A stretch of 64,000 nucleotides of DNA from NCBI GenBank assembly GCA_945888995.1, contig CAMDBA010000001.1, positions 12,796 through 76,795 of the forward strand. Reading direction: 5' to 3'. This document shows, in pieces, positions 5,055-48,158 of the stretch; position 1 is the first letter of the stretch, and each line of letters begins with the position of its first letter. The notes beneath the pieces were generated by a model that did no database searches, was not told where the DNA came from, and worked only from the letters and a program-made list of their open reading frames with translations. The translations under genes and the position numbers were made by a program. The stretch comes from a bacterium UBP8_UBA817 (GTDB lineage Bacteria; Margulisbacteria; Marinamargulisbacteria; CAMDBA01).

Positions 5055-5367
5055 ATTAATAGTCGTTCAACTCTCCAATTTTTCATAATCCTTGTACGTC
5101 TCAAGGATACCAAGAATTGAAAGCGTCCACTGGACTAAATATTAAGTAGATTTCAATTAATCGTCACTGTTTTATAAACATACTTCGCACAGCGGGACCT
5201 CGTAAACGATAGCTCGAATACAAGCAACTCAAAAGATGATGCAATAAGTAGTGCATGGGGATAATCCTGGGAATTGAAATTAGGTACGTAAAATGTGGGA
5301 TTGGGCATGCCGGTCCTCCGCTCAAATAAATTATGTACGAAAACTATCCCTGATTGCATTAGTAAAA

Positions 5368-5404
5368 GCTGGCATGCCAGCCGTAGCTCCGAAGGAGCGA
5401 AGGC
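5368..5404. repeat. REP-like double palindrome
   Basis: Perfect 14-bp palindrome GCTGGCATGCCAGC (5368-5381) plus hairpin GCTCC-GAA-GGAGC (5386-5398), abutting the tmRNA 3'-end duplicate. Confidence 0.55.
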
Positions 5405-5427
5405 TGGTGGAGGTGACCGGAGTTGAA
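5405..5427 (-). repeat. 23-bp exact duplicate of the tmRNA 3' end (attR-like)
   Basis: TGGTGGAGGTGACCGGAGTTGAA at 5405-5427 equals 5693-5715; on the minus strand it runs from the T-loop TTC to CCA. Confidence 0.9.
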
Positions 5428-5692
5428 GTCACTGCTGCGGCTGCCAACGCACCCTTGCTATGACCAAGTCTGCACTCCTGACGTTCCCGCCGTCGCGCTC
5501 ACTTTTCCTCCCTATTCGGTCGGCGGAGCTGGCTGTTCAACTCCGACGAAAAGGTTTTTTGTTACCACTTACTTCGAATGCTACCCATTTCCAAAAAATT
5601 TTAGTGAGATTGGTCATTTCTCGCGGAGGGGATAGTAGCGGAAGCTACAGACCCGCAGCGAAAATGGCCAAGATTGCAAAATTTTTTAGAAA
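5428..5692 (-). mobile_element. Putative gene-less miniature integrative element in tmRNA (265 bp)
   Basis: Bounded by the 23-bp direct repeat; contains a motif shared with the tRNA-Asp insert (5478-5525) and a 50-bp core shared with the tRNA-Tyr trailer (5616-5665). Confidence 0.55.
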
Positions 5693-6072
5693 TGGTGGAG
5701 GTGACCGGAGTTGAACCGGTGTCCGAAGGACCTGAAAGCTAATCCACTACGAGTGTAGTTTCTGTTTTATTTTTTAATAGTCGGGACTCCCAGAAACAGG
5801 ATTCCGTCCTACGAGATCCGGTAAAGTTTCGCTTCAAACCCCGTATCATAGTTTTTCGGCTAGTTGACTAGTTTTACGCCTCCCAGGTCTCATCAACGAA
5901 GACAAGGGCGACGGCTACCTAAATTTAATTAAGCAGCGAGTTTTTGAGAACCGAAGTTCCCGTAAGTAACGTTGTTGTCGTTTACTTTTTTTCTGCCTTT
6001 TTACGAGGCCGGGCAGCTCCTCGACTCGCGTTTTAGCCTCACAATATCCCCCGTCGAAACCATTACACCCCC
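5693..6072 (-). ncRNA. ssrA: tmRNA (one-piece, 380 nt)
   Basis: 5' GGGGGTGTAATGGTTTCGACGGGG; 3' GGACACCGGTTCAACTCCGGTCACCTCCACCA; acceptor stem with G3:U70; internal tag ORF ending LAA*. Confidence 0.97.
5929..5985 (-). other. tmRNA tag reading frame (A)VNDNNVTYGNFGSQKLAA*
   Basis: GTA AAC GAC AAC AAC GTT ACT TAC GGG AAC TTC GGT TCT CAA AAA CTC GCT GCT TAA; resume codon inferred from the usual GNN-AAC-GA context. Confidence 0.8.
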
Positions 6073-29191: not shown

Positions 29192-29268
29192 GGGGACGTA
29201 GTTCAGTTGGTTAGAACGCCTGCCTGTCACGCAGGAGGTCGCCGGTTCGAGCCCGGTCGTCCCCGCCA
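29192..29268 (+). tRNA. tRNA-Asp(GTC)
   Basis: 77-nt cloverleaf GGGGACG...CGTCCCC-G-CCA, anticodon loop CT-GTC-AC, T-loop TTCGAGC. Confidence 0.98.
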
Positions 29269-29317: not shown

Positions 29318-29453
29318 GGAGGGCGCTGTGAGGAGGCCTTAAGCCGACGAAACCGAAGTTGCGCCGACCGAGTAGGGAGGAAAAGTGAAGGCAATAATGC
29401 CTGAACGTCAGCAACGTAGGCTGGGCGGCTTGATCCGCAGGATCAACGAAGCC
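29318..29453 (+). mobile_element. Putative gene-less miniature insert behind tRNA-Asp (136 bp)
   Basis: Lies between two identical 72-bp repeats; carries CGCCGACCGAGTAGGGAGGAAAAGTGA...GAACGTCAG shared with the tmRNA insert. Confidence 0.55.
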
Positions 29454-29525
29454 TTCGAGCCCGGTCGTCCCCGCCACTAAATCATTAAATAACAACTTCA
29501 CGATAGCCAAAACCGGTGACCTCCG
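29454..29525 (+). repeat. 72-bp exact direct repeat of the tRNA-Asp 3' end plus 49 nt of trailer
   Basis: 29246-29317 equals 29454-29525 (TTCGAGCCCGGTCGTCCCCGCCACTAAATC...GGTGACCTCCG). Confidence 0.95.
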
Positions 29526-33610: not shown

Positions 33611-34490
33611 TTTTCTTGCAGCCTATACCCGTTTTTTAACGTTTTTAGAGCAAGAACGTCAGTATTCCACCCATACGATTAGCAGCTACAAGCGGGATCT
33701 AAGAACTTTTGGGGAGCACAGCGCTACCATCCCTGAATGGGAACAGCTTTCTCATCCGGAATGCAAGACTTACTTATATTTTCTTGAGTCAAAAGGGTAT
33801 AGCCGGAAGACGATTGCCAGGATGATCGCGACCATGCGGTCGTTTTGGCGATATCTGTCCGCACACAAAAACGTGACGCATAATCCTTGGGAATTTCTTA
33901 TCATCCCGAAACTCAAACCTAAATTACCGCAGTTTTTACTCAAAGATGAAATGGCCCGTTTTCTAAGTCAGATCGACACCAGTGAATCCGCAGGGTTGAG
34001 AGACCGCGCTATTTTTGAACTTCTGTATAGTTCCGGGCTTCGGGTTTCCGAGCTTGTCGCACTGGATATCGATGACGTCGACTTCGAAAATGACGAGATT
34101 AAAGTTCTCGGAAAAGGAAAAAAAGAGCGCATCGTTTTATTCGGTGGGATCGCCAAAGACGTGCTAATCCGATATATCAACAGCGCACGACCCGAATGGC
34201 TCACAGAACCTACCGACGCCTTATTTTTAAATCAACGAGGAAATCGACTGACGTCTCGCAGTATCCAGCGTATACTAAGGGTTCGTTCAGGATCTCTGTA
34301 TACCGGCAAATCCATTACGCCGCATACACTACGACATTCCTTTGCGACTGATTTATTAAACGGAGGCGCGGATTTACGAATCGTTCAGGATTTATTGGGG
34401 CATTCGAGTCTTTCAACGACTCAGATTTACACCCATATTTCTAAAGAAAAACTTCTGAAATCCTACAAAAAAGCCCATCCACATGCCTAA
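33600..34490 (+). CDS. xerC: Tyrosine recombinase XerC/XerD-type
   Basis: YSSGLRVSEL, GKGKKER, HTLRHSFATDLL, LGHSSLSTTQIY; start GTG 33600 (or ATG 33576). Confidence 0.88.
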   Translation: MTPSFLAAYTRFLTFLEQERQYSTHTISSYKRDLRTFGEHSATIPEWEQLSHPECKTYLYFLESKGYSRKTIARMIATMRSFWRYLSAHKNVTHNPWEFLIIPKLKPKLPQFLLKDEMARFLSQIDTSESAGLRDRAIFELLYSSGLRVSELVALDIDDVDFENDEIKVLGKGKKERIVLFGGIAKDVLIRYINSARPEWLTEPTDALFLNQRGNRLTSRSIQRILRVRSGSLYTGKSITPHTLRHSFATDLLNGGADLRIVQDLLGHSSLSTTQIYTHISKEKLLKSYKKAHPHA

Positions 34491-47896: not shown

Positions 47897-47988
47897 TGCG
47901 TTACTCCGTGACCATTATGCCAAGAGTTATACCGAGATTTCAATCTCGATCTATAAGAGATATGTTAAATTTATTGAAAGTATCTCAA

Positions 47989-48070
47989 TTTTTTATCATG
48001 TGCAATTTCTCGCGAAGGGGATAGTCGCAGACGCTACAGACCCGAAGCGAAAATTGTACATGGAAAAAAA
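47989..48070 (-). repeat. Long hairpin directly 3' of tRNA-Tyr, with 50-bp core shared with the tmRNA trailer
   Basis: 48005-48054 matches 5616-5665 at 45/50 positions; flanked by locus-specific inverted arms. Confidence 0.85.
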
Positions 48071-48071
48071 T

Positions 48072-48158
48072 TGGTGGAGGGAGCTGGATTCGAACCAACG
48101 TAGCGCGTAGCGCGGCAGATTTACAGTCTGCTACCATTAACCACTCGGCCATCCCTCC
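48072..48158 (-). tRNA. tRNA-Tyr(GTA)
   Basis: 87-nt GGAGGGA...TCCCTCC-A-CCA, anticodon loop CT-GTA-AA, long variable arm, T-loop TTCGAAT. Confidence 0.98.

Follow-up and report, generated by a model that had tools for sequence, protein, structure and literature searches.

Integrases classically land at the 3' ends of tRNA and tmRNA genes. In the stretch of DNA analysed here, hereafter the window (64,000 nucleotides, C1:12796-76795 of a 1.04-Mb, 15-contig assembly that is 76% complete and is labelled G000), two such ends, those of tmRNA and tRNA-Tyr, are followed by copies of one 50-nt core, each set in a long hairpin. What kind of element is this, and does it serve the RNA genes that it follows or use them as a place to land? 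The original prediction, made from the letters of the window, had named an element end, a terminator-like trailer and a 3'-processing signal. Throughout, H denotes the hairpin repeat with the 50-nt core, X a second, neighbouring repeat, T a terminator module and R1 the covariance model of H.

Results

A shared hairpin behind tmRNA and tRNA-Tyr

The two cores (Table 1) are identical at 45 of 50 positions and lie 27 nt (tmRNA) and 17 nt (tRNA-Tyr) from the CCA, both 3' of the gene and on the tRNA strand, exactly as first described. Each half-motif of the core is found exactly twice in the window, against an expectation of about 0.01. The surrounding hairpins, of about 111 nt at tmRNA and about 90 nt at tRNA-Tyr, take the CCA or CA of the tRNA into their bases; at tmRNA the base of the stem consists of the CCA (5693-5695) and the trailer, paired with the 3' arm. 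The earlier claim that the flanking arms are locus-specific and yet self-pairing holds at both loci, the outer arms being unlike one another and each locus self-complementary. H carries no ORF.

Table 1. Coordinates of the features discussed (window positions unless a contig or locus is named)
Feature	Position	Strand	Remarks
tmRNA gene	5693-6072	-	ARAGORN; Rfam RF00023, 188.9 bits; CCA end is the base of the hairpin
tRNA-Tyr(GTA) gene	48072-48158	-	ARAGORN and Rfam; CA end is the base of the hairpin
tRNA-Asp gene	29192-29268	+	from the tRNA calls in the window
H behind tmRNA, long subtype	5585-5695	-	core 5616-5665; MFE -45 kcal/mol; R1 89.7 bits
H behind tRNA-Tyr, short subtype	47985-48074	-	core 48005-48054; apical stem degenerate (GTAGCGTCTGCGAC)
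X core and 5' arm	5428-5545	-	arm (5536-5545) complementary to T-loop/T-stem of tail copy; right-hand part of the 288-bp insert
tmRNA 3'-end copy, 23 nt (TTCAACTCCGGTCACCTCCACCA)	5405-5427	-	right boundary of the insert; partner 5693-5715
T module	5364-5404	-	small hairpin and canonical terminator (GGCTGGCATGCCAGC TTTT); original tmRNA trailer in the empty allele
X locus	5405-5545	-	
X locus	29342-29476	+	
X locus	C2:54387-54531		
X locus	C4:33054-33201		
X locus	C9:8354-8499		
X locus	C11:39604-39747		
Xer-like gene of G000	~33933-34448	+	
Xer-like gene of G000	C3:95415-95927		
Non-tRNA subfamily of H	L210, L213, L215, L216, L218, L246-L249, L251, L254, L256-L259		

A third copy in the same assembly, at C9:8265-8354, shares 89% identity over 90 nt with the tmRNA copy and lies directly 3' of the CCA of a copied tRNA-Lys tail, which places H directly behind a CCA in all three copies of this genome. 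By our own arithmetic, given 31 tRNA/tmRNA ends in the 1.04 Mb of G000, the chance that a random site lies no more than 5 nt from one of them on the right strand is about 7e-5; the observed figure is three of three. The shared core is therefore confirmed as real and far beyond chance.

Placement at encoded CCA ends

A pattern search of 146 genomes of the phylum finds the strict core in G000 (three copies), G007 (four) and G031 (one), and in no other genome. Scanning of metagenome contigs adds eight further strict copies, all from seawater, while a scan of viral contigs returned 0 matches to H. Seawater samples with this lineage include those of ERZ19401112, ERZ19568166 and ERZ27280xxx. All 16 copies in this sample begin 0-3 nt past an encoded CCA, on the tRNA strand. 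Their hosts are tmRNA (three times), tRNA-Met (three times), the tRNA-Lys tail copy at the end of an X element and, once each, tRNA-Tyr, Ala, Gln, Lys, Glu, Gly(GCC), Gly(UCC), Pro and Arg, counted as 12 kinds of tRNA or tmRNA plus one tRNA-tail copy. Only a minority of tRNAs is occupied in any case; in G000, H follows 2 of the 31 tRNA/tmRNA genes.

The 3' arm of H is the antisense of the trailer plus CA or CCA, and in several copies it extends into the acceptor strand by up to 6 nt, as in GCTCCA/TGGAGC at tRNA-Gly(UCC) and CACCA/TGGTG at tRNA-Lys. Long and short subtypes of H group by the type of arm and not by the identity of the tRNA. The G000 copy at the tRNA-Lys tail and the G007 copy at tRNA-Ala are near-identical over about 90 nt, in genomes of different families and at loci that are not orthologous. 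At the tRNA-Glu of a seawater contig (L148), the tRNA end occurs inverted once more past the 3' arm of H, 3 nt behind the first inverted copy and longer than it (GTTGGTAGC, complementary to GCTACCAAC), which has the appearance of a tRNA end copied twice.

A class-wide family of covarying hairpins

A covariance model, R1, was built from the 16 strict copies. It matches 28 of the 55 genomes of class Marinamargulisbacteria and 0 of the 91 other genomes of the phylum, so the family is restricted to the class and the strict-core copies are one subfamily of it. The number of copies per genome runs from 0 to 17, with G005 the richest (17). Roughly 79 matches were obtained: about 38 directly behind a tRNA or tmRNA, about 11 that are further units of tandem arrays begun at a tRNA, about 5 behind tail copies or partial tRNAs at contig ends, and about 25 away from tRNAs. 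About two thirds are thus anchored on a tRNA. The architecture of H is an imperfect hairpin of 80-110 bp with an almost invariant apex of 30 nt (CGGGTCTGTAGC-ttcc-GCTACTATCCCCT), a mid-stem that is kept across the matches (ATCTGCAC-AATTTTCGC / GCGAGAAATT-GCACATCT) and outer arms that are locus-specific. The apex varies among subfamilies with its pairing retained.

As measured on 41 independent sequences, compensatory changes occur in 22 of the 23 model pairs, and the covariation score of 0.346 compares with 0.102 for shuffled alignments (0 of 500 reach the observed value) and 0.06-0.09 for slid controls. Base pairs are thus kept by compensatory change in independent copies, as expected of a structured element. 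Pairing with the CCA and acceptor nucleotides likewise recurs in independent lineages, for instance CTACCA/TGGTAG at tRNA-Met of G005, CGCCA/TGGCG at tRNA-Asp of G043 and GCCA/TGGC at tRNA-Ser of G013. In at least four families of the class, tRNA-fMet is followed by a hairpin of the H type whose arms have diverged and still pair, and H stands behind tmRNA in three lineages.

Tandem amplification is seen in G005 (L222-L227), where arrays of two to four H-like units of about 100-280 nt each lie directly behind tRNA-Pro, Leu, Met, Glu, Ser and Gly; no tRNA-tail copies are present between the units of these arrays. Most of the approximately 25 matches away from tRNAs form a subfamily with conserved outer arms of its own (GGCTCTGTCGCGAAATA ... 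CATTTGGCGACATCG; loci in Table 1), which looks like an ordinary dispersed MITE.

The tmRNA insert and the neighbouring X repeats

Behind tmRNA, the modules follow in the order tmRNA, H, a spacer of about 40 nt, X, the 23-nt copy of the tmRNA end, and T. H, spacer, X core and tail copy together make up an insert of 288 bp, flanked by 23-bp direct repeats of the tmRNA end. A sister-strain contig, L173, joins the CCA of tmRNA straight to T and has neither H nor X; a second one, L170, carries the same T allele in the filled form. The 288-bp unit therefore behaves as a single insertion or deletion bounded by the 23-bp direct repeats; an assembly artefact is unlikely for a repeat of 23 nt. Several contigs end at the tmRNA end, inside H or inside X. 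Elsewhere in the assembly, at C9:38861-38877 (-) and away from called tRNAs, there is a 17-mer that matches the tmRNA 3' end at all but 2 nt (TCAGGTCATCTCCACCA).

X itself follows six tRNA/tmRNA genes of G000 and has a core of about 110-130 nt. Every X opens with an arm that is complementary to the T-loop/T-stem of its tail copy; the tail copy, at the other end, repeats exactly the final ~20 nt of the upstream tRNA. The X motif, CGCCGACCGAATAGGGAGGA, is widespread behind tRNAs in many phyla, and in the form CGCCGACYGANNARGGAGG was found behind tRNAs at more than 117 loci, again in many phyla. In two loci (L004, at about 1300-1410, and L121) the X core is hidden by withheld sequence, shown as runs of N. 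One G007 locus (L244, G007:C21:16506-16999) has the X motif reversed (TCCTCCCTACTCGGTCGGCG) beside tail-like sequence and an H-like hairpin.

At tRNA-Lys the order is tRNA-Lys, T, X, tail copy and H. Two sister contigs, L264 and L269, are identical to G000 (C9:8354) through tRNA-Lys, T, X and the tail copy, and diverge exactly past the tail CCA, where unrelated DNA takes the place that H has in G000. This replacement DNA holds an ORF of 242 aa that is absent from the G000 assembly. At tRNA-Tyr, H is present in 10 of 10 sister-strain contigs and is followed by core genes. Its apical stem is broken, and in the sister strains 2-4 SNPs, none of them compensated, fall within 95 nt and in part alter otherwise invariant positions, next to a tRNA that does not vary; this copy is decaying in the population. 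No clean pair of filled and empty alleles that differ by H alone was found among the sister contigs.

The direct repeats bear on the element end of the original prediction, which stood in part. A tRNA-end repeat at the far end, as attL and attR would give, is present at tmRNA, and there the 288-bp insert, its 23-bp repeats and the empty allele in a sister strain uphold the idea. As a general island end, H finds no such backing: no attR copy of the tRNA-Tyr 3' end exists anywhere in the assembly (76% complete), and the H-only loci, over the downstream stretches of 80 nt to 7 kb (mostly about 1.5 kb) that were examined, show no tail copy.

The hairpin folds better on the strand opposite the tRNA

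Folding of the two strands gives a consistent asymmetry. The fold antisense to the tRNA (the + strand of the window) is the more stable one in 15 of 15 full copies, with a mean gap of 8.4 kcal/mol under RNA parameters and 4.7 kcal/mol under DNA parameters, and in 39 of 41 sequences of the independent set. Transition mismatches between the arms would read as G.U or G.T on the antisense strand in 34 cases and on the sense strand in 6, and the mid-stem of the 41 independent sequences, read on the sense strand, has 54 A.C oppositions and 0 G.T. Controls show the opposite, the sense fold being better for X (6/6) and for tRNAs (27/29). The antisense apical loop is of the GNRA type, GGAA or GAAA, in 11 of the 15 strict copies, with GCAA and GCGA in other subfamilies. 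Such a superior antisense fold argues against a role for the hairpin in the tRNA transcript and fits either a folded single strand of DNA or an antisense RNA. Part of the asymmetry could reflect mutation, through deamination of the copied arm, rather than selection. An argument from the replication strand, drawn from GC skew, was discarded, as contigs C1 and C9 are inconsistent.

Known element types and candidate enzymes

A search of Rfam 15, at the gathering threshold and at E<=10, returned only tmRNA and tRNAs and no match to H. An HDV-like, theta or other known ribozyme was rejected on this ground, no model matching even at E<=10, and because the fold is a colinear hairpin. The terminator-like trailer of the original prediction gained no support: a U-tract is missing, the terminator scan makes no call on either strand, T-runs precede the hairpin and A-runs follow it, and ordinary terminators of a GC-hairpin and a T-run are found nearby. 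A 3'-end hairpin of convergent mRNAs was likewise set aside, the next gene being convergent in 9 of 20 loci, which implies no convergent bias. Phage origin was rejected with the 0 matches in viral contigs. An msDNA-like antisense hairpin, made by tRNA-primed reverse transcription, was rejected because the H-bearing genomes lack a reverse transcriptase (PF00078 is absent from G000, G005, G007 and G031).

No transposase or nuclease gene tracks the H family. Y1 genes (RAYT-type, PF01797) occur once each in G000 (C2:89613-89939) and G007 and not at all in G031 or in G005 with its 17 copies, and the flanks of both Y1 genes have no R1 match with filters off. A RAYT association was rejected for want of a correlation and of H at the RAYT flanks. 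The tyrosine recombinases of G000, G005 and G031 number two in each genome, all of them Xer-like (Table 1 for G000). Small GIY-YIG genes are present at two loci. At the sister-strain tmRNA/H/X locus, an 80-aa GIY-YIG ORF (L170, 718-960) lies about 190 nt beyond T; behind tRNA-Met in G027, another of 80 aa (L190, 1471-1710) lies about 190 nt past T and is 64% identical to the first. The T module beside these ORFs (GCCTTCGC...GGCTGGCAnGCCAGC TTTT) abuts the CCA end. In G000, T follows the tmRNA tail copy and tRNA-Lys, and the GIY-YIG ORF is missing; no such gene is found in the G000, G007 and G031 assemblies or at other H loci. A small GIY-YIG nuclease as the driver of H is a lead only.

Discussion

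What H is most likely to be

We read H, with middling confidence, as a class-specific palindromic element of the REP/MITE-like kind that is tied to tRNA 3' ends, spreads as DNA and is folded on the strand opposite the tRNA. Since H folds best on that strand, it looks like a small mobile DNA and not like a tRNA terminator or processing signal. It would spread as non-autonomous mobile DNA whose active form is the folded single strand opposite the tRNA, and it would land at, or travel with, tRNA 3' ends. Signs of mobility are the near-identical copies at non-orthologous tRNAs of different families, subtypes that do not follow tRNA identity, the tandem arrays and the range of copy numbers; the placement at CCA ends, the filled and empty tmRNA alleles, the covarying stems, the strand of the better fold, the decay at tRNA-Tyr and the lack of a match to known functional elements also speak for this reading. 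Against it stand the lack of a correlated enzyme gene, of a target-site duplication and of a filled/empty pair for H alone. The outer arms may be made or repaired by copying of the flank, through fold-back or template-switch synthesis in the quasi-palindrome, a step suggested by the known behaviour of quasi-palindromes in fold-back repair and template switching. Arm copying would explain the locus-fitting arms, their reach into the tRNA end and the symmetrically shortened arms of the copy at the X-borne tRNA-Lys tail. Any effect of H on the tRNA transcript would be secondary.

An alternative is that H is a functional part of the tRNA or tmRNA primary transcript, one that sequesters the CCA, directs 3' maturation (for instance by an RNase III-type cut within the long stem), blocks exonucleases or stops transcription without a U-tract. 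This would account well for the strict position immediately 3' of the CCA on the tRNA strand, for a stem base that pairs with the CCA and acceptor nucleotides in many independent lineages while the arms covary, and for the copies at tmRNA in three lineages and at tRNA-fMet in at least four families; the fMet recurrence with its pairing arms fits long-term conservation, and hence function, as well as it fits repeated insertion. We nevertheless consider a trailer function unlikely, given that the sense fold is the weaker one in both sets of sequences and that its mismatches are A.C, which is not tolerated in RNA, and not G.U, whereas the tRNA and X controls behave as sense RNAs. Such a function is also difficult to square with the missing U-tract, with H on so few of the G000 genes, with tandem arrays and a subfamily away from tRNAs, and with an H-less allele at tmRNA and a decaying copy at tRNA-Tyr. 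The 3'-processing signal of the original prediction is unlikely for the same better fold opposite the transcript, the decay at tRNA-Tyr and the minority of tRNAs with H. If the relevant molecule were instead an RNA from the strand opposite the tRNA, be it a cis-antisense sRNA or a structured element at the 5' or 3' end of convergent transcripts, the better RNA fold of that strand, with G.U where the sense strand has A.C, and the GNRA character of most of its apical loops would follow naturally. Yet no promoter-like site is directed into H on the antisense strand, no U-tract comes after the antisense hairpin, fewer than half of the next genes are convergent, and both G.T wobbles and GNRA-type loops stabilise single-stranded DNA too, the asymmetry persisting with DNA parameters. 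We regard an antisense RNA as improbable.

H might also be the attachment-site-proximal (left) end of small integrative elements at tRNA 3' ends, that is, a structure next to attP that binds a recombinase or an accessory protein. At tmRNA, H is indeed the first module of the 288-bp insert, with its 23-bp repeats and the empty allele in a sister strain; at tRNA-Lys it stays with the displaced tail copy, as expected from the integration of X into a tRNA-Lys|H junction, and strain-specific DNA starts exactly at the CCA of that tail. The apex, moreover, is an imperfect palindrome of 30 bp, which is as long as the core site of a recombinase. Against this, the H-only loci have no second tail copy downstream over the distances examined, and tRNA-Tyr has none in the whole assembly and is followed behind H by core genes. 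G000, G005 and G031 also hold no integrase beyond two Xer-like genes, and the conserved zone is in the middle of the hairpin and not at the junctions, where a crossover site would split. This explanation is rather doubtful. As for the two points on which the original prediction had staked itself, H is not a generic terminator and it does have further copies.

A wider reading, which is tentative and on balance unlikely, would make H, X and the CCA-abutting cassette of T module and mini-GIY-YIG gene parts of one undescribed mobile-DNA system aimed at tRNA 3' ends, in which a small conserved scaffold gains a helix copied from its target and H works as single-stranded DNA, folded from the strand opposite the tRNA. 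The helix of H would be an inverted copy of CCA and trailer, that of X an inverted copy of the T-loop/T-stem, and the choice of target would lie in the nucleic acid itself and not with a dedicated integrase.

Whichever of these applies, a hairpin repeat without genes occupies the landing junction of integrases in genomes whose own integrases are limited to Xer. Arms copied from the target would point to an undescribed way of targeting or healing tRNA ends; if H serves the tRNA instead, it would be a lineage-specific signal for tRNA maturation. In practice, H and X break metagenome contigs at tRNA genes and mark strain-variable junctions in an uncultured marine lineage.

Relation to known repeats and folded substrates

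REPs are palindromes of 20-40 nt, one end of which is tagged GTAG or CGTC (PMC3733652). H resembles REP and BIME sequences in that its copies are short, non-coding, imperfect palindromes, in several subfamilies, of variable copy number and arranged in part as dimers or arrays, with conserved mismatches and bulges, a strand-specific fold and an apical stem that opens with GTAG; one Y1-type gene in each of G000 and G007 extends the likeness to REP/RAYT systems. However, H is 80-110 nt long and is conserved in the centre, not at the ends. Only two subfamilies have the GTAG, and there it is internal to the apical stem; there is no terminal tag, and no cognate RAYT flanked by H, as in a REPtron, was found, the richest genome (G005) being without Y1. 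Anchoring on tRNA CCA ends is not known for REPs. MITEs and other palindromic repeats, such as Correia/NEMIS, ERIC and the Rickettsia RPE, are like H non-autonomous, hairpin-forming and intergenic, with subfamilies and with presence or absence among strains, and one Rickettsia RPE sits in tmRNA. Unlike a MITE, H has no conserved TIRs and no target-site duplication flanking its hairpins, its arms are locus-specific and complementary to the flank, and its orientation and position relative to tRNA genes are strict.

Integrative elements that target tRNA or tmRNA, and their derivatives without an integrase, abut the tRNA 3' end as H does, and H plus X at tmRNA has direct repeats and an empty allele, but most copies of H have neither a direct repeat nor cargo, and the genomes checked have no integrase beyond Xer-like ones. 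Theta (minimal HDV-like) ribozymes lie directly downstream of phage tRNAs (PMC10879173). Like H, they are small, conserved, structured elements immediately behind tRNA genes; H, in contrast, is a colinear hairpin without a nested double pseudoknot, has no HDV-like Rfam match, is found in no viral contig and folds better on the other strand. Several recombination systems use folded single strands as substrates, among them the bottom strand of integron attC, the attP hairpin of CTX phage (XerCD) and the end hairpins of IS200/IS605. H would resemble these systems in its strand-specific imperfect hairpin with conserved bulges or internal loops, and the H genomes checked (G000, G005, G031) hold only Xer-type tyrosine recombinases; the site of H, however, is a tRNA end and not dif or attI, and no likeness in sequence to dif, to the attC R/L boxes or to IS608 ends was noticed. 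Two traits of H were not found in the literature searched, namely strict anchoring at CCA ends with arms complementary to the target, and a fold opposite the tRNA. Although it is without their defining features, H is closest to the REP/BIME and MITE-like palindromes.
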